In this document: in pieces, positions 1-12,168 of the stretch
Layout: each line of letters begins with the position of its first letter
Numbering within the stretch: position 1 is the stretch's first letter
Source: a virus
Lineage: Duplodnaviria > Heunggongvirae > Uroviricota > Caudoviricetes
Strand: one strand, 5' to 3'
DNA: 22,254 nt
IMG/VR virus record: IMGVR_UViG_2529292906_000020
Location: 1-22,254 of that record
Translations under genes and position numbers: made by a program
Notes under the pieces: model-generated
The model's input: the letters and a program-made list of their open reading frames with translations, nothing else
What the model was told of the DNA's origin: nothing
Database searches by the model: none

Positions 1-1272
1 GTCTCCGGCTGTCGGCAACAGGGAGATTGTGCGTACGGATGCATCTTCAGACGGCCCCGATGGCGTGTCGCCGCCGGGCGAGGGTTTGATTTCCGGTGCC
101 TTACCACTGATGAAGGCTGAGGTGCGCCCGGCTGCGTTCAGAATAGCGGTTGCCATACGATCCGGAATAATGCTCCTGCGCGCCCATGAACTGAAATGTG
201 TCGGGCGGTTTGATGATACCTGGTTTCCATTCGTTCTCGATGCCGCACCGTAATATCCTGATGCCGGAATATCCGGATCTTCTGCCGGTGCGTTAGTGGC
301 GGTATTGACGCCGTTACCGTCTGTCATGAAGGGCACAAAATAAACGCCCTCACTCTCCCTGTTTTTATACCCGCCGTACACGGTGTCGTACTGGGTAGCG
401 TATGTATTTTTCCAGTAATACGTCGTGTCACCACAAATCCACGGCACATTTACAGCACTGCCACCATGACACTGCGCGTTAAACACAGTGAGGTCAGCAC
501 GAAACTGCTTCAGCATGGCTGTAAACAGCGCAGGTTGCTGTGCGTAGGTGGCGGCGCTCATGTCAAACTCTCCCTGCATCCAGCACACCGCCAGCAACAC
601 ATTTTTCGGGTTCTTCTGTAATGCAGCTTTAGTGCGCGCAATCAGGTCCTGATATAACGGTTTACCCACCCCCCAGCGCGCCGAATCCTGGCTGGCCCCC
701 GCGTCCGCACTGAATGTCCCCTCCGCGCCCCGGGTGAATGCCGAACCACCACGACAGCATGGTACCAGCAGGATCCCCGCGTTATTCGGGATATACGGGA
801 GCAGTTTTTTGGCAATATGTAAGCCCTGGCCGACACAGCCGTACTGCCCTTTGCTCAGGTCTGCCTTCGGATGATTCAGCGTACTCATATCCTGCACATC
901 ATGCAGACAGTGGTCAGCCGGGATGATGTCGTTATACGTACAACTCTCTCCACCCGGAGTTACCGTGCTGCGGCGCGCCAGCTGTTTAATGCGCGGATCC
1001 GGAGCATCGTAAGAATCCGGTAACGGAAGCCCTTCACCGTAGGCCATGCCGTTGGACTGTCCGGCAAGCACAACCACGTAGAACCAGTCCGGCTCAGATG
1101 AAGGGCCGACCTGTGGATCTCCTTCAATAGCCACCGCCTGCATCAGTGTGTACGGCGTAATGGCAACCGGTCCGCCATATGGCTGCCAGCCCTCTTTCAG
1201 TTTGTGTGTCAGCTTTTCCGCAAGGTCTGACGGCGACGCCGCCCTGACAACATCATAGTGTTTAAATGCCAT
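1..1272 (-). CDS. nanS-p: NanS-p-like prophage sialate O-acetylesterase (DUF1737-like N-terminus plus SGNH/SASA esterase domain); 5' 424 codons only, 3' end lies beyond window start
   Basis: ATG at 1272-1270 preceded by GGAGG; frame stays open to position 1; translation starts MAFKHYDVVRAASPSDLAEKL and contains VLAGQSNG (GxSxG-type SGNH motif); sits downstream of the phage tRNAs as in Stx-type prophages. Confidence 0.6.
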   Translation of the reverse strand, partial: MAFKHYDVVRAASPSDLAEKLTHKLKEGWQPYGGPVAITPYTLMQAVAIEGDPQVGPSSEPDWFYVVVLAGQSNGMAYGEGLPLPDSYDAPDPRIKQLARRSTVTPGGESCTYNDIIPADHCLHDVQDMSTLNHPKADLSKGQYGCVGQGLHIAKKLLPYIPNNAGILLVPCCRGGSAFTRGAEGTFSADAGASQDSARWGVGKPLYQDLIARTKAALQKNPKNVLLAVCWMQGEFDMSAATYAQQPALFTAMLKQFRADLTVFNAQCHGGSAVNVPWICGDTTYYWKNTYATQYDTVYGGYKNRESEGVYFVPFMTDGNGVNTATNAPAEDPDIPASGYYGAASRTNGNQVSSNRPTHFSSWARRSIIPDRMATAILNAAGRTSAFISGKAPEIKPSPGGDTPSGPSEDASVRTISLLPTAGD

Positions 1273-1466
1273 GAATCCTCCCGGCCGGGATAATATTGTG
1301 AGTAAAATGAGGAGCGGGCTGAAGTCCGGAAGTTACAGGACAATGGCAGAAGAGAGACAATAGCCCGCAATACGAAAAAGGCCGCGCTATTGCGCAGAGT
1401 GATTACTGTCGGATATTATTCGCCAGCTGAAATATTACTTCACGTTTTGTTGTTTATTCCTTGCCG

Positions 1467-1494
1467 CCCGCGTCTCCCTGCGCGGGATTTTTTT
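1467..1494 (+). terminator. Rho-independent terminator-like hairpin on plus strand (CCCGCG-loop-CGCGGG followed by T7)
   Basis: 6-bp GC stem 1467-1472/1481-1486 followed by ATTTTTTT. Confidence 0.45.
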
Positions 1495-1505
1495 GTCCAT
1501 AAGAA

Positions 1506-1525
1506 AGCCCCTCCGGAGAGGGGCT
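1506..1525. repeat. Perfect palindromic hairpin AGCCCCTC-CGGA-GAGGGGCT (8-bp stem, 4-nt loop)
   Basis: Perfect inverted repeat read directly; no flanking U-tract on either strand, so not a canonical terminator. Confidence 0.5.
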
Positions 1526-1721
1526 GGAGAGTGGCGCTATGTGCCATTGCATGGTGCCGGGTGCCTCCCGGTGAATTCAGTACCAGCACCTGAATCCGCG
1601 ATTATCCCATATACCTACTCGCTGATTGCCCCTCCGCACAGGGGGATTCACCATGCCAGTTTCTTTTAACAAACTCCCCGCAAAACAGACAACTGTCAAC
1701 CGTCTGAATTGTGAGACATTT

Positions 1722-1747
1722 AAAAAAAAGGCCCGCAAAAGCGAGCC
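1722..1747 (-). terminator. Rho-independent terminator after the tRNA cluster (minus strand)
   Basis: On minus strand GGCUCGC-UUUU-GCGGGCC (7-bp stem with one G.U) followed by U8 (plus A-run 1722-1729). Confidence 0.6.
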
Positions 1748-1761
1748 AGGGAAAATAAGTG

Positions 1762-1838
1762 TGGCGCGTTGTACTGGATTCGAACCAGTGACCGATTGCT
1801 TAGAAGGCAATTGCTCTGTCCGGCTGAGCTAACAACGC
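1762..1838 (-). tRNA. tRNA-Arg (anticodon TCT)
   Basis: Manual cloverleaf: acceptor GCGTTGT/ACAACGC, D-stem GCTC/GAGC, anticodon stem ATTGC/GCAAT with loop CTTCTAA, T-arm ACTGG-TTCGAAT-CCAGT, encoded CCA; 77 nt. Confidence 0.85.
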
Positions 1839-1851
1839 AGGGTACAGATAA

Positions 1852-1928
1852 TGGACCGCCATCGAGGACTCGAACCCCGCGCAACCAGCTTCGAAGGCTG
1901 GCGCTCTATCCTGATGAGCTAATGGCGG
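1852..1928 (-). tRNA. tRNA-Arg (anticodon TCG as read from loop CTTCGAA)
   Basis: Manual cloverleaf: acceptor CCGCCAT/ATGGCGG, D-stem GCTC/GAGC, anticodon stem CCAGC/GCTGG, T-loop TTCGAGT, encoded CCA; 77 nt. Confidence 0.75.
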
Positions 1929-1935
1929 TATGTGA

Positions 1936-2011
1936 TGGTGGCCCTTGCTGGATTTGAACCAGCGACCTGGCGATTATGAGTCGCTCGCTCTCACCACTGA
2001 GCTAAAGGGCC
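1936..2011 (-). tRNA. tRNA with CAT anticodon (Met or lysidine-modified Ile2, ileZ-like in phage context)
   Basis: Manual cloverleaf: acceptor GGCCCTT/AAGGGCC, D-stem GCTC/GAGC, anticodon loop CTCATAA, T-arm GCTGG-TTCAAAT-CCAGC, encoded CCA; 76 nt. Confidence 0.8.
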
Positions 2012-2060
2012 GCGCGCAGAATAATAACGTTACGGAATTAATACTGCAATCTCATCCGTT

Positions 2061-3110
2061 TCAAACGATTAAATCCTGAACTTCCCTGACTGTCTGCTCA
2101 AAACGTCCGGTCTCCAGCTCAACACCAATCGCACGACGCCCCAGTGCCATCGCCGCTTTTACCGTTGAACCCGACCCCATGAAAAAATCCGCAACCAGAT
2201 CACCAGGACGACTACTTGCGCTGATTATCTGCTGCAGCATTTCTGCCGGTTTTTCGCACGGATGTTTCCCTGGATAGTACTGCACCGGTTTATACGTCCA
2301 CACATCGGTGTACGGCACCTGCACCGTCACACCGAAATACCGCCGCAAATTTTTATATTCACTCAGCAGTTCCATATACTGCCGGTTCAGCTCACTGTAT
2401 GTGCTGACCAGCTGGTGGTGTGGCTTTTCCAGTTCCCCGCGCTGATGTTTCTCTTCTGCCACCCGGGCAAACAGCGACTGTAATTTCAGATAATCGCTTT
2501 CATTCGGCAACTGCCACTGACCGGCACTGAACCAGTGCGACACCATGTTTTTCTTTCCTGTGGCATCTGCAATCTGTTTTGCCGTTATCCCCAGGGCTGC
2601 GCGCGCATCACGAAAGTAAGAAATCAGCGGGGCCATCACATGCTGTTTCAGTGCACTGCCCTTCGCCGCATACCCGGCATCTTTCGGACGATACGGCCCC
2701 TGATAATGTTCCGCGAACAGAATGCGCTCTGTGGCGGGGAAATACGCCCGCAGGCTTTCCTTGTTGCATCCGTTCCAGCGTCCGGACGGCTTCGCCCAGA
2801 TAATATGGTTCAGCACACTGAAGTGTTCACGCATCATGATTTCGATATCAGATGCCAGGCGATGACCACAGAACAGGTAAAGACTTCCGGCAGGTTTCAG
2901 CACCCGCCAGAACTGCGCCAGACACTGGTCCAGCCACTTCAGGTAATCATCGTCGCCCTTCCACTGGTTATCCCAGCCCTCAGGCTTCACTTTAAAGTAC
3001 GGCGGGTCCGTAACTATCAGGTCAACAGAATTTTCGGGTAACGACCGGATAAATTCCAGGCAGTCGGCGTTGATTAACTCACAACTGGATATTTTTACAG
3101 TATTAAGCAT
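2061..3110 (-). CDS. DNA methyltransferase, beta-class amino-MTase (N6-adenine or N4-cytosine); orphan, no adjacent restriction endonuclease
   Basis: 349 aa; motif IV DPPY near N-terminus (LIVTDPPYF) and motif I FFMGSGST near C-terminus, the circularly permuted order typical of beta-class MTases. Confidence 0.85.
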   Translation of the reverse strand: MLNTVKISSCELINADCLEFIRSLPENSVDLIVTDPPYFKVKPEGWDNQWKGDDDYLKWLDQCLAQFWRVLKPAGSLYLFCGHRLASDIEIMMREHFSVLNHIIWAKPSGRWNGCNKESLRAYFPATERILFAEHYQGPYRPKDAGYAAKGSALKQHVMAPLISYFRDARAALGITAKQIADATGKKNMVSHWFSAGQWQLPNESDYLKLQSLFARVAEEKHQRGELEKPHHQLVSTYSELNRQYMELLSEYKNLRRYFGVTVQVPYTDVWTYKPVQYYPGKHPCEKPAEMLQQIISASSRPGDLVADFFMGSGSTVKAAMALGRRAIGVELETGRFEQTVREVQDLIV

Positions 3111-3245: not shown

Positions 3246-3273
3246 AAATAAAAAAGCCTTCACTGAGGAAGGC
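3246..3273 (-). terminator. Rho-independent terminator overlapping the 3' end of the 65-aa gene
   Basis: Minus strand GCCTTC-CUCAGU-GAAGGC followed by UUUUUUAUUU. Confidence 0.6.
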
Positions 3274-3457
3274 GTCTGTAACAACCGAACTGATAATCTG
3301 CCAGACCCGCCATAACAAGCTGGGTCAGTATTAACTGGCAACGTTCGCGTGAAAGGTAAGTATTATGCGCAATTTCCCCGACGGTCGCCGGTTCGGTGAC
3401 GCTTAATTCATTAAACACCACTCTGGCAGTTTCGGTCATATCCTGCTGTTTTAGCAT
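3260..3457 (-). CDS. Small winged-helix-like DNA-binding protein (65 aa), function unknown
   Basis: ORF with GGGAAAAGG upstream of ATG; sequence TVGEIAHNTYLSRERCQLILTQLVMAGLA resembles a wHTH recognition region; flanked by terminators on both sides. Confidence 0.5.
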   Translation of the reverse strand: MLKQQDMTETARVVFNELSVTEPATVGEIAHNTYLSRERCQLILTQLVMAGLADYQFGCYRRLPQ

Positions 3458-3575
3458 GCCTTTTCCCTTTTCTGGTTAACGTGACATACCAATAACTCTT
3501 GTCGAAAAAGCCAGCAAGCTGAAAGACCGATATTAATAACTACCAGCGCGTTTAATGTACCGCACTTCGGGCATC

Positions 3576-3599
3576 AAAAAACCCGCTCAATGGCGGGTT
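3576..3599 (-). terminator. Rho-independent terminator about 20 nt downstream of the 265-aa gene
   Basis: Minus strand AACCCGC-CAUUGA-GCGGGUU followed by UUUUGAUG (U6 run including stem end). Confidence 0.65.
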
Positions 3600-3619
3600 T
3601 AATTAATGAGGTAACAACC

Positions 3620-4417
3620 TTAACTTGTTTGATTCTGTACTTCAGTGGCCTTCTTCCCTTCAATACCTGCCTTGAAAGTCTCGAATGTTTCAACATTAAA
3701 CAGCGAAAAAGATTCGATCTGATCGAAGGGCAACACATGCCTAAACTGATAAACTGACAATGGCTCAGAAGTTAATGTGATACCCTGACTAAGGTAGTAG
3801 TCCACATAATTATGCTCAACACAAAAAGTCAGAGTATCTTTATCTCTGTACCCGGACATAAAAGGGATTAGCACCAATGTGTTAGTATCTAACTGATTGA
3901 AACGTGCCTCATCAATCATCCCCACATAGACCTTGCGAGACTTCAGTGTAACCAACAATAACAATCCACGCTCAACTGATTCAAGAAGGATATTTTCCAC
4001 GGCACTATGAGCCGCAATTTCTTCAAAAATAGCCTTGCGCTTTTGTGGGTCTTTATGGTTTTTGGTTGCCTCTGATGCCTTCCCGATACTTACAATAATA
4101 GTGAAAGCTATCGACATAGCAGGGAACATGCTCAACCCAAACACTCGCATTTTGAGAAAGTCATGGGCGAAAGTAAAGGGAGCGTACCAACCAAACAAGT
4201 ACGCTGGAATGTTCCAAAGTGACATTCCAGCGTACAGAACAACAACCAATAAGGCAGCGATAAGAATACCACTTATGAGAAACTCACCACCTTTCAGTGC
4301 AACATCAAAGTATGCATTCCAACCGATCGCTTTGCTTTGACGGTATCGTGACGGCAAATGGCAGTTGGTATAGTGATAACCACAAACTAAAACAATAACA
4401 ATCAGCGCAGCCCACAT
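3620..4417 (-). CDS. Membrane protein of unknown function (265 aa): three predicted N-terminal TM helices plus about 150-aa C-terminal soluble domain
   Basis: Hydrophobic segments WAALIVIVLVCGY, FLISGILIAALLVVVLYAGMSLW and FGLSMFPAMSIAFTIIVSI; ATG at 4417 lies 6 nt after the stop of the upstream 75-aa ORF (coupled pair); A+T-rich by eye relative to flanks. Confidence 0.7.
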   Translation of the reverse strand: MWAALIVIVLVCGYHYTNCHLPSRYRQSKAIGWNAYFDVALKGGEFLISGILIAALLVVVLYAGMSLWNIPAYLFGWYAPFTFAHDFLKMRVFGLSMFPAMSIAFTIIVSIGKASEATKNHKDPQKRKAIFEEIAAHSAVENILLESVERGLLLLVTLKSRKVYVGMIDEARFNQLDTNTLVLIPFMSGYRDKDTLTFCVEHNYVDYYLSQGITLTSEPLSVYQFRHVLPFDQIESFSLFNVETFETFKAGIEGKKATEVQNQTS

Positions 4418-4423
4418 AGAAGA

Positions 4424-4651
4424 CTAACCCTTCTTCTTAGTACTCAATCCCTTAATATTGGCTGCGAAAGCCTTTTGCACATCAGCGTTGTTGCGATTCA
4501 AAACCATCGAACCATTACTATCAATGAAAAACTTGTCACTTTCATGCTTAGCTTCTTTTCCATCACACATGGAAGCTATATCTGCAATTTTTTTGATGAT
4601 CTTCTCAGGTGAGAGGATCGCGCGAGCGGCAAGTGTTAGATATTTCGGCAT
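4424..4651 (-). CDS. Small hydrophilic protein (75 aa) of unknown function, first gene of the two-gene cassette
   Basis: ATG at 4651-4649 preceded by GGAGGGGAGC (strong SD); alternative upstream ATG at 4708 would add a hydrophobic 19-aa N-terminus (MCAYFVCVLFVFYLLTEGS) but has a weaker RBS. Confidence 0.6.
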   Translation of the reverse strand: MPKYLTLAARAILSPEKIIKKIADIASMCDGKEAKHESDKFFIDSNGSMVLNRNNADVQKAFAANIKGLSTKKKG

Positions 4652-4830
4652 GCTCCCCTCCGTTAACAGATAAAACACAAAAAGCACACAAACAAAGTAT
4701 GCGCACATCCTAACCTATGTGGCTAACAACCACTTTCTTTTATAAGATGAGTGTATTACCTAAAGGGTAACTCGGCAATAGCAGAATAGTTTTAGCAAGG
4801 TAAAATCGATGGTCTTTCGCTCAACTTACG

Positions 4831-4859
4831 ACAAAAGATAGCCCGCTCAGCAGCAGGCT
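4831..4859 (-). terminator. tR'-like Rho-independent terminator about 70-90 nt downstream of the Q-like gene
   Basis: Minus strand AGCCUGC-UGCUGA-GCGGGCU (7-bp stem, one G.U) followed by AUCUUUUGU. Confidence 0.55.
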
Positions 4860-4911
4860 TTGTTTAGTTTGCCATCGTGTACAAAATCAGCAAAATATCA
4901 GATTTACACGA

Positions 4912-4940
4912 AATGTACGCGATTTAATTGACTTTTGCAA
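4912..4940 (-). promoter_or_regulatory. Candidate late promoter (pR'-like) overlapping the 3' end of the Q-like gene
   Basis: -35 TTGCAA (4935-4940), 17-bp spacer, -10 TACATT (4912-4917) on minus strand, immediately upstream of the tR'-like terminator. Confidence 0.4.
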
Positions 4941-5619
4941 TAACCCGCCGCGAAAAGGTCGCTTTTTGTTGCGATCTTGTTTTCATGGTATAAATCAAAG
5001 ATTCGTTGTCGAGGTTCTTAAAAATGTCGCACATATCACGCCAGTAGTGCGCATAATTGTGGCTCCAGTTGTCTGACTTAACTCCACACAGTCTGGCAAG
5101 TTCCTGTCGCTGGTAGACGTCACACCCAGTAATCCTCCCCCTGACATCCTGCGCCGCCAGCCAGATTAATTTCTTCAGACGCTCAAGCGTTTTCCCTGTA
5201 ATTTTTCTGGTGCCAAAATGCACCTGAAACTTATCCCACGCCCATTTCGCAATGACCACCTGATAATCCCAACTCGGATTTTCACTGTATACCCACAGTA
5301 CCCACGCCTTCTGATGCTCTTCAAGAGACAGAACGGCGCGTCGCCATGATGATGTCGAAAACTCAACCGGACTGACTAGGGCAATTGATGAACCTTTCGC
5401 CAGCGATTGCTTTCCCGGGATCGGTGGATTATCCAGCGTTACCATTTTTCCAGTGACCTTATCGCGGTACCGGATTTTTTTACGTCTGTAACGCCCTGTA
5501 TCAAACATGGCATTCTCCTGCCAGGCTTCAAGCTGACCTTTTGTTGCCCCACTCAAATCGGCGGTGGCGATAATGAGTTGCTCACGAACAAACTGTAAAT
5601 ACTGGTTATTCATGCGCAC
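4924..5619 (-). CDS. Putative late-gene antiterminator (Q-like), 231 aa
   Basis: Called mainly by position: last gene of the nin-like region after rusA, immediately followed by a promoter/terminator pair and late-region cargo; family not verified. Confidence 0.5.
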   Translation of the reverse strand: MRMNNQYLQFVREQLIIATADLSGATKGQLEAWQENAMFDTGRYRRKKIRYRDKVTGKMVTLDNPPIPGKQSLAKGSSIALVSPVEFSTSSWRRAVLSLEEHQKAWVLWVYSENPSWDYQVVIAKWAWDKFQVHFGTRKITGKTLERLKKLIWLAAQDVRGRITGCDVYQRQELARLCGVKSDNWSHNYAHYWRDMCDIFKNLDNESLIYTMKTRSQQKATFSRRVIAKVN

Positions 5620-11094: not shown

Positions 11095-11285
11095 GGACGC
11101 ACCTCCACCGTAGTTACGTATTTAACCGGGCTACCTTTCATTGAGATGGTTTCACACATCTCTGCCGCTTTCAGTTCCGCTGTTTTTCTGGATTTATAGC
11201 GACGGTGCCAGACAGATACATCCGTGCGAACTGATACATCGTTTCTGTATTCCGTAGTGGAGATGATGATTTCGTAACTAATCAT
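11091..11285 (-). CDS. Hypothetical phage protein (64 aa)
   Basis: Start overlaps stop of Rha-like gene; coupled operon member. Confidence 0.4.
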   Translation of the reverse strand: MISYEIIISTTEYRNDVSVRTDVSVWHRRYKSRKTAELKAAEMCETISMKGSPVKYVTTVEVRP

Positions 11286-11845
11286 GGGCGAACCTCCTTG
11301 TCAGAACCATTCAGCCTGGAATCAACAAGTGCAGCGCCAAAAACAGCATCACCAACACGGTCGTACAGTTTGCTAGCCAGCGGAGATTCAACGGCCTTAA
11401 GCATTGGATAAAGCTGGCTTGTCCAGATTTGATGGATTTCACGCAAATGCAGGTATACGCCTCTGGCGTTTCGTGCGACAGCTGACATATCAGACGCATC
11501 GGCACCTGATAAACTCTTCTCCATCAGGTTAAAGGCGTTGATGTATGCCTCTTTGAACCGGGCAGCACGTTTACCAGTGAAGCCCATGGCAAGAAACGCA
11601 AAACCGTCGCGGGTGATTTGGTAACAAGGGAGCTTGCGTGTACCACCGTTCGGTTGATTTACCGAAATCGATGTCTCCGCAAAATTGCGGGCACAAAACT
11701 CAGGGGAACAATCCAGAGTGCGGATCTTTTTCAGCACATCGTCATGACGCTTGGAGAAGAAGTTGGCAACAGCCAAAGAAGTGGTAACGGCCTGGCCGTT
11801 GTCAATGGTGATTTCAGGTTGAGTGAGGGCTGGGATCGTAGCCAT
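11282..11845 (-). CDS. Rha-family phage regulatory protein (187 aa from the SD-supported start)
   Basis: ATG at 11845-11843 preceded by GGAGG at 8-nt spacing; ITIDNGQAVTTSLAVANFFSKRHDDVLKKIR...YQITRDGFAFLAMGFTGKRAARFKEAYINAFNLME matches the Rha/Bro-N-like pattern; the in-frame extension to 12145 has no SD. Confidence 0.65.
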   Translation of the reverse strand: MATIPALTQPEITIDNGQAVTTSLAVANFFSKRHDDVLKKIRTLDCSPEFCARNFAETSISVNQPNGGTRKLPCYQITRDGFAFLAMGFTGKRAARFKEAYINAFNLMEKSLSGADASDMSAVARNARGVYLHLREIHQIWTSQLYPMLKAVESPLASKLYDRVGDAVFGAALVDSRLNGSDKEVRP

Positions 11846-12010
11846 GATGGCAGCCTCCGTTGACAGTGAAAAACTTCCACCACCGGAAACGCCAATTTCA
11901 CTGGTGGTGAACTGGACGGGGTTGGCGTAACCGGCGTCAACGGAGACCGGCGCACCTTTCGGTGCCCCCGCCCAGCCCACCATAATCTGGATGTGAGCAA
12001 ATGCGGACGA

Positions 12011-12031
12011 TAAAAAAGACGCTGACGCGTC
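12011..12031 (-). terminator. Weak Rho-independent terminator (tR1-like) in the leader between the 235-aa gene and the Rha gene
   Basis: Minus strand GACGC-GUCA-GCGUC followed by UUUUUUA. Confidence 0.35.
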
Positions 12032-12168
12032 ATACATCGCCGTTGACAATTTCAGGACGCCAATCCCGGCACCCGCTTTATAAGGTGCGGAGACAGTGTA
12101 ACGTCCCGAAATTGCAGAATCAATATTTGGTCTTGAAATGATCATATAGCTGCTGATATCTTTAGAAC

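Follow-up and report, generated by a model that had tools for sequence, protein, structure and literature searches.

The 489-bp interval between the last tRNA gene and nanS-p in the viral DNA analysed here (22,254 nucleotides, IMG/VR record IMGVR_UViG_2529292906_000020, hereafter the window) very probably holds a conserved pair of convergent sRNA genes, a module of the late region of lambdoid prophages in pathogenic E. coli that is present here in a toxin-free version resembling that of prophage Sp4 of E. coli O157:H7 Sakai. Our analysis establishes that stx is absent, along with the sequence identities, a covariance-model match, the terminators and the breakpoints; it is the literature, on copies that are at least 98% identical, that documents Hfq binding, RIL-seq targets and detection on Northern blots. 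The contents of the interval are already known and go in nothing beyond that literature. The outcome is a correction at the level of annotation, by which the gap between the tRNAs and nanS-p is to be read as a conserved regulatory RNA module and not as a vacant toxin site.

The window is oriented in reverse of the phage late direction, i.e. the late strand is the minus strand. On that strand, Q, three small ORFs, a DNA methylase gene, three tRNA genes, the 489-bp gap and nanS-p follow one another. A reading made from the sequence alone had proposed the order Q, tRNAs, nanS-p; this order stands but the direct adjacency does not, since Q is located ~2.9 kb upstream of the tRNAs with the three small ORFs and the methylase gene in between. 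The length that it had estimated at about 490 bp agrees with the exact boundaries (1273-1761), which are set by ARAGORN on the side of tRNA-Arg(TCT) and by the nanS-p start codon (1272..1270, minus strand) on the other. The nanS-p product displays the Pfam domains DUF1737 (E 8e-16) and SASA (PF03629, E 1e-12), and the gene is 97.5% identical in DNA to ECs_1088 of Sakai Sp4. That nanS-p occurs in non-Stx prophages is established knowledge in the literature. The features of the region are the following.

4924-5619, minus strand: Q (PF06323)
3110..2061, minus strand: DNA methylase gene (PF01555)
1762..2011, minus strand: phage tRNA cluster ileZ/Met(CAT), argN(TCG), argO(TCT) (ARAGORN; Rfam tRNA matches; annotated as ileZ1/argN1/argO1 in Sakai Sp4)
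1936-2011, minus strand: tRNA-Met/Ile(CAT), ileZ (ARAGORN)
1852-1928, minus strand: tRNA-Arg(TCG), argN (ARAGORN)
1762-1838, minus strand: tRNA-Arg(TCT), argO (ARAGORN)
1722..1747, minus strand: intrinsic terminator of the tRNA cluster (terminator scan; stem 1747..1730, then T8 to 1722)
1719..1721, no strand: point junction at which Stx2 phages carry the 1332-bp cassette of stx2 promoter, stx2A and stx2B, unoccupied here (blastn breakpoints, alignment)
1495..1685, minus strand: STnc100-family sRNA gene of the EcOnc05 type (Rfam RF02076 covariance model)
1497..1525, minus strand: terminator of the STnc100-type sRNA (perfect 8-bp stem 1525..1506, 4-nt loop, tail UUUCUUAUG)
1467..1494, plus strand: intrinsic terminator of the plus-strand sRNA (terminator scan; stem 1467-1486, then T7)
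1459..1465, plus strand: putative seed of the plus-strand sRNA (CCUUGCC), whose complement is the GGCAAGG/GGCAGGG motif shared by the RIL-seq targets of its EPEC homologue
1313..1494, plus strand: gene for an Hfq-dependent sRNA of the EcOnc08/21/42 type, which converges on the STnc100 gene and runs antisense to the nanS-p leader (98.4% identity to the EPEC sRNA)
1372..1397, minus strand: additional terminator-like hairpin in the nanS-p leader (terminator scan; stem 1397..1382, CTGCGCAATAGCGCGG, then CCTTTTTCGT)
1303..1308, plus strand: candidate -10 hexamer TAAAAT of the plus-strand sRNA, read from the sequence, with no good -35
1..1272, minus strand: 5' part of nanS-p, a prophage sialate O-acetylesterase gene (424 codons; Pfam DUF1737 and SASA), which leaves the window at its left end

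The likeness to Sp4 is nearly complete across the interval. Indeed, the argO1-ECs_1088 interval that carries the EcOnc05/EcOnc08 pair in Sakai O157:H7 (PMC4104026) is also 489 bp long and is identical at 484 of the 489 positions, the difference amounting to five substitutions. It is likewise flanked by an argO tRNA and an esterase-type gene, and the two Northern probes match the window exactly, each on the expected strand. The two elements differ upstream of the tRNAs, where the window contains the methylase gene, three small ORFs and a Q of the PF06323 type, whereas Sp4 contains an AraC-family regulator, a CAAX protease and a different antiterminator. Both RNAs of the Sakai Sp4 pair, EcOnc05 and EcOnc08, were identified through crosslinking to Hfq and on Northern blots (PMC4104026). 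Convergent sRNA genes have been reported at this position in Sp3, Sp4, Sp5, Sp9, Sp10, Sp11, Sp15 and Sp17 (Tree et al. 2014, PMC4104026), and the same sRNA dyads are described in a review (PMC7873438).

The gene on the minus strand belongs to the STnc100 family (RF02076), which was first described in Salmonella prophages. The covariance model matches 1685..1495 (minus strand) with 139.2 bits for a gathering score of 47 (E 1e-32), and the match is full-length, spanning model positions 1-206 of 206, with a central variable loop ~15-20 nt shorter than in the consensus. Using the probe sequences of EcOnc05 and EcOnc08/21/42 given in the supplement of PMC4104026, the EcOnc05 probe was matched exactly at 1593-1627 on the plus strand, and its RNA is therefore on the minus strand. 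The Sakai Hfq-CRAC peak for this RNA maps to 1624..1516 (minus strand) of the window. Folding 11 STnc100 copies together with RNAalifold yielded a long-range helix that closes the structure, three internal hairpins and the GC-rich terminator, with 34 consensus pairs, four of which show compensatory changes, mainly in helix 111-136. The terminator stem is invariant or compensated across the 11 homologues. The secondary structure is conserved with covariation support; folded on its own, the minus-strand RNA does only modestly better than shuffled sequences (z = -1.95). The Sp4 copy, which is 99% identical, was recovered by Hfq CRAC and gave a Northern band of ~222 nt (PMC4104026). In EDL933, 11 STnc100 copies are annotated, all of them with transcriptome read counts, and one copy of 191 nt was confirmed by Northern blot (PMC5331693). 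The copies located 3' of stx2B have been discussed repeatedly, and the literature assigns no defined biological role to STnc100-type RNAs in any host.

Two side observations concern relatives of this gene. PhiR5_2 and phiSTEC1589-Stx1c each possess two tandem and diverged STnc100 copies upstream of the esterase gene (1062-1255 and 1531-1740 in one locus segment, 1398-1609 and 1671-1884 in the other). Besides, PasD1/PasD2 (EcOnc13) of EPEC have been reported to be structurally related to STnc100 and are often found upstream of a sialate esterase gene (bioRxiv 10.64898/2026.05.13.724894). A PasD identity was ruled out here, as the probe CATGCGCAGCCAGAACTCACAAGG has no match in the window even when 3 mismatches are allowed.

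The second gene, convergent with the first, lies on the plus strand. The stretch 1313-1494 shares 98.4% identity across 182 nt with the EPEC sRNA E2348C_1409.E2348C_1408.IGR (coordinates from Table S6 of PMC8550237), a 182-nt RNA of prophage PP6 of E2348/69 that its authors noted as a homologue of EcOnc08/21/42 (PMC8550237). The EcOnc08/21/42 probe matches exactly at 1386-1420 on the minus strand, which places its RNA on the plus strand, and the Sakai Hfq-CRAC peak for the plus-strand RNA maps to 1420-1492 of that strand. The 3' end of the EPEC homologue corresponds to position 1494. The candidate TAAAAT is 5 nt upstream of the position equivalent to its 5' end as estimated by RNA-seq. We assign the gene to the EcOnc08/21/42 type on its identity to an experimentally defined RNA, on the seed that sits just before the terminator 1467-1494 and on this intrinsic terminator with its U tract; folding it as a single sequence gives no gain over shuffles (z = -0.38). 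The targets that RIL-seq assigned to the EPEC homologue have a GGCAAGG motif in common, and the cfa 5'UTR, dppA, tir and emrA are among them (PMC8550237). The PP6 sRNA shares the CCUUGCC seed and the terminator with the window (Pearl Mizrahi et al. 2021, PMC8550237); the locus differs by an ISEc13 element that interrupts the neighbouring STnc100 gene and by a downstream gene annotated DUF6645. In E2348/69 (NC_011601, locus segment 4142-5691), the two flanks of the split STnc100 gene overlap by 8 nt (window-equivalent 1634-1641) and the 3' remnant still scores 75 bits with Rfam. The adjoining EcOnc08-type sRNA is intact there and is the one detected by RIL-seq.

The convergent layout had raised the suspicion that the plus-strand RNA could be AsxR or AgvB, and this identity was ruled out by Rfam and by a pattern search. 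No match to RF02703 or RF02702 was obtained in 1250-1800 at E up to 10, and the conserved ~42-nt 3' region of these RNAs (AGTATCTCATGC..TTGCCCGAACCCA.TCGGGC) is absent with 3 mismatches allowed. As positive controls, the same models recovered AsxR in Sp5 (88 bits) and AgvB in PPyecE_EH1910 (96.5 bits).

Sp5 and PPyecE_EH1910 carry other partners in an equivalent arrangement. In Sp5, the EcOnc27 (sRNA103)/AsxR pair has the same architecture and the same position relative to nanS-p, with an STnc100-family RNA on the late strand and a short Hfq-binding RNA convergent with it, and the tRNA terminator and the nanS-p leader are conserved. It differs by a 1332-bp stx2 cassette between the tRNA terminator and the sRNA block, by an STnc100 copy that is ~72% identical to that of the window and ~15-25 nt longer, and by its immediately convergent partner, AsxR, which is absent from the window. 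The stx-free phage PPyecE_EH1910 harbours STnc100 plus AgvB in the same slot.

These assignments change how the hairpins of the interval are to be understood. The three hairpins named in the sequence-only reading were all recovered by our terminator scan, but they are not free-standing elements: 1467-1494 and 1506-1525 are the terminators of the two sRNAs, and 1722-1747 is that of the tRNA cluster. A fourth site missing from that list, the hairpin 1372-1397 (minus strand) in the nanS-p leader, is conserved in Sp5 despite the different partner sRNA there (AsxR); located within the plus-strand sRNA gene, it could serve either strand. Terminator-like sites are indeed enriched, with 5 observed in 1100-2200 versus 1.1 +/- 1.1 in shuffles. 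Together with the lack of stx and of a convincing ORF, and with the placement of stx between the last tRNA and nanS-p in Stx2 phages, this enrichment is what speaks for the interpretation initially given to the interval, that of an empty or residual toxin-cassette locus with terminators and hairpins only and no gene content. We regard it as very improbable. Two conserved sRNA genes, annotated and experimentally detected, occupy the interval and account for two of the three hairpins, and 446 + 41 of its 489 bp are kept around stx2AB in Stx2 phages (Sp5 and LC567818), where it is split at 1719-1721. The sole unoccupied site is the point junction at ~1719-1721.

That the interval encodes one or more small proteins could be argued from mechanical ORFs of 49-77 aa, from the tiny ORFs that PHANOTATE calls in phi296 and from a few EDL933 STnc100 copies with ribosome coverage values >1 (PMC5331693). 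Yet the homologous copies are separated by frame-breaking indels of 1, 3, 4, 8 and 20 nt, the start codons of the ORFs are TTG or GTG, some of the ORFs run into tRNA genes, and several EDL933 copies show low ribosome coverage (0.04-0.65; PMC5331693). A small-protein locus appears very improbable, in agreement with the initial view that the interval has no convincing ORF, those present being mechanical ones of up to 77 aa.

As to the toxin genes, the description of the element as an stx-negative relative of Stx phages is borne out by its lambdoid late region and by the searches for stx. Neither tblastn with Stx1A/B and Stx2A/B nor blastn with both cassettes revealed any remnant in 1273-1761, and elsewhere in the window these searches gave chance-level matches only. 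Stx-converting phages have stxA and stxB between the late promoter/tRNAs and nanS-p; here, the tRNA-sRNA junction is uninterrupted. In Sp5, the canonical Stx2 prophage of Sakai, and in the Stx2a phage LC567818, stx2AB does lie between the last tRNA and nanS-p, as the sequence-only reading stated, and the two phages delimit the cassette. The stretch 2100..1721 of the window (tRNAs and terminator) aligns upstream of stx2A with ~92% identity and ends 50 bp before its start codon, the terminator 1722-1747 being kept directly upstream of the toxin gene. From position 1718 onward, the window aligns 3' of stx2B, starting 41 bp past the stop codon. The 489 bp are therefore distributed as 446 bp kept downstream of stx2B and 41 bp kept upstream of stx2A, on both sides of a cassette of 1332 bp in either phage (2169-3500 in LC567818, 2558-3889 in the Sakai Sp5 locus segment). 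The Stx1 phage VT1-Sakai presents the same sRNA block after stx1B, with 87% identity overall and 97% over 1578..1217 of the window, and Rfam detects STnc100 downstream of stxB in all the Stx phages examined (LC567818, Sp5 and VT1-Sakai). The stx2 cassette is now defined to the base relative to an stx-free backbone, as 1332 bp between the tRNA terminator and the STnc100 block, which could help to score stx loss or gain in assemblies.

A breakpoint that is clean within 2-3 bp against both Sp5 and LC567818 might also be expected from a recent loss of stx2AB by precise deletion from an Stx2 phage. This scenario appears improbable in view of the flanks, whose identity to those Stx2 phages is only 92% on the side of the tRNAs and 72-79% on that of the sRNAs, versus 99% to the stx-free Sp4. 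The only direct repeats at the cassette are a 5-nt ATCTG microhomology at chance level, and the junction TTTTTTTTAAATGTCTCAC is unlike the product of recombination between these flanking repeats. Moreover, the partner sRNA is of the EcOnc08 type and not the AsxR of Sp5, and the uninterrupted tRNA-Arg/terminator/STnc100-start junction is found, at a coverage of at least 80%, in 1013 of 5426 complete E. coli genomes, among them O157:H7, O55:H7 CB9615, O111 and E2348/69. Because of these Sp4-like flanks, this partner, this junction and its wide occurrence, the element is far more likely to belong to an stx-free lineage of long standing than to have lost stx recently by deletion.

The sRNA block itself is more widespread, since it matches in 2866 of the complete E. 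coli genomes (more than half of those searched) and at up to 14 places per genome. Its upstream neighbours vary between tRNAs, stx1, stx1c, stx2, a TerB-like gene and Q directly. Many genomes share with the window only 1714..1499, at ~97% identity, which indicates that the STnc100 unit is a module with an exchangeable convergent partner. At a larger scale, the whole window is contiguous in no complete E. coli genome searched (best case, 90% coverage and 98.5% identity), and the element is a mosaic with a Sp4-like late region and with Q, methylase and early region from other lambdoid lineages.

Where the minus-strand RNA begins bears on an alternative in which the structures act mainly in cis. 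According to it, a series of terminators would silence nanS-p and the lysis genes unless Q is active, and the sRNAs would be by-products of read-through from the tRNAs or stx. Three minus-strand terminator-like sites do stand between the tRNAs and nanS-p, and a candidate pR' and tR' are found just downstream of Q. Candidate 5' ends of the STnc100-type RNA are ~1718 (from the ~222-nt Northern size, which places it at the edge of the tRNA terminator), 1685 (Rfam model) and ~1655 (TTGNNT-17-TTAAAA), so that the RNA may start anywhere from ~1655 to ~1718. A consensus promoter scan of the minus strand found no promoter for it. The element TTGNNT-17-TTAAAA is the sole one conserved in all ten upstream contexts compared and is a poor sigma-70 match; the alignment of these ten contexts displays the conserved block TTAAAT-N3-TCACAATTCAG-N4-TTGAC. 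Neither conserved element amounts to a convincing sigma-70 promoter, and they predict different 5' ends. This lack of a strong sigma-70 promoter is in line with read-through. Nevertheless, the plus-strand RNA cannot derive from late transcription, the homologues bind Hfq, reach high levels in uninduced cultures and were linked by RIL-seq to specific targets with a seed motif, and the STnc100 unit is transferred as a module to contexts with no tRNAs or stx upstream. A predominantly cis function is consequently unlikely, though cis-terminator and trans-sRNA roles are not mutually exclusive.

With Q, a candidate pR'/tR' and a convergent gene pair, the window has the composition of a lambdoid late-region moron slot with convergent sRNAs, a class defined by its place between Q/pR' and the lysis genes and by two convergent genes for Hfq-binding sRNAs (Tree et al. 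2014). The convergent sRNA pair that we favour is arranged as follows. In the late direction (minus strand), the tRNA cluster is closed by its own terminator (1747..1722) and is followed by the STnc100-family gene of the EcOnc05 type with its terminator (1525..1497). The EcOnc08-type gene (~1313-1494) meets it from the opposite strand, 3' end to 3' end, its CCUUGCC seed preceding the terminator; the nanS-p leader with one more terminator-like hairpin and nanS-p itself come next. In the lysogen, both sRNAs would be made independently of Q, bind Hfq in this host as their homologues do, and have trans effects on mRNAs of the host and of virulence genes. Upon induction, polymerase modified by Q would proceed from pR' through the minus-strand terminators at 1747, 1525 and 1397, a read-through that would be required for nanS-p and the lysis genes to be expressed. 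Stx2 phages have the same module with the 1332-bp stx2AB cassette at one point between the tRNA terminator and the sRNA block. Expression in this host, the promoters, the 5' ends and the Q-dependent read-through are the steps that we infer. The full complementarity of the plus-strand RNA to the nanS-p leader over 1313-1494 raises the idea, tentative and rather doubtful, that the arrangement itself is functional and that this RNA has a cis role in addition to its trans one. If true, transcriptional interference or antisense pairing with the late transcript would tie the expression of nanS-p and the lysis genes to lysogeny; the reason for the sRNA dyads has been called unclear (PMC7873438).

Other features of the window were noted along the way. 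A candidate late promoter pR' (TTGCAA-17-TACATT, ~4940-4912, minus strand) overlaps the end of Q, and a tR'-like hairpin (4859..4840, minus strand, tail ATCTTTTGTC) is positioned ~65-85 nt downstream of it (region 4832-4940). This layout resembles pR'-tR', and a short leader RNA comparable to lambda 6S or StxS would be expected from it. Between Q/tR' and the methylase gene, three ORFs (3260-4708, minus strand) encode 94 aa (no family), 265 aa (PHROG 3630 of unknown function, no Pfam or PADLOC match) and 65 aa (phrog_331, weak TrmB-like wHTH), and a terminator-like site follows them (3273..3256, minus strand). PADLOC scored only the methylase among the ORFs between Q and the tRNAs, and the three ORFs are moron-like cargo in a second slot downstream of Q. 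In the early/immunity region, adjacent Rfam matches to the C4 antisense RNA (81 bits) and isrK (62 bits) at 11900-12088 (minus strand) overlap the ORF 11282-12145 and suggest a P1/P7-type, Gifsy-like C4/IsrK module for antirepressor control. Finally, an ALIL pseudoknot (20021-20137, 121.5 bits) at the overlap of the ORFs 19740-20066 and 20063-20953 (plus strand) is the frameshift site of an IS3-family transposase, and this IS element (19740-20953) adjoins the integrase gene (21190-22254).
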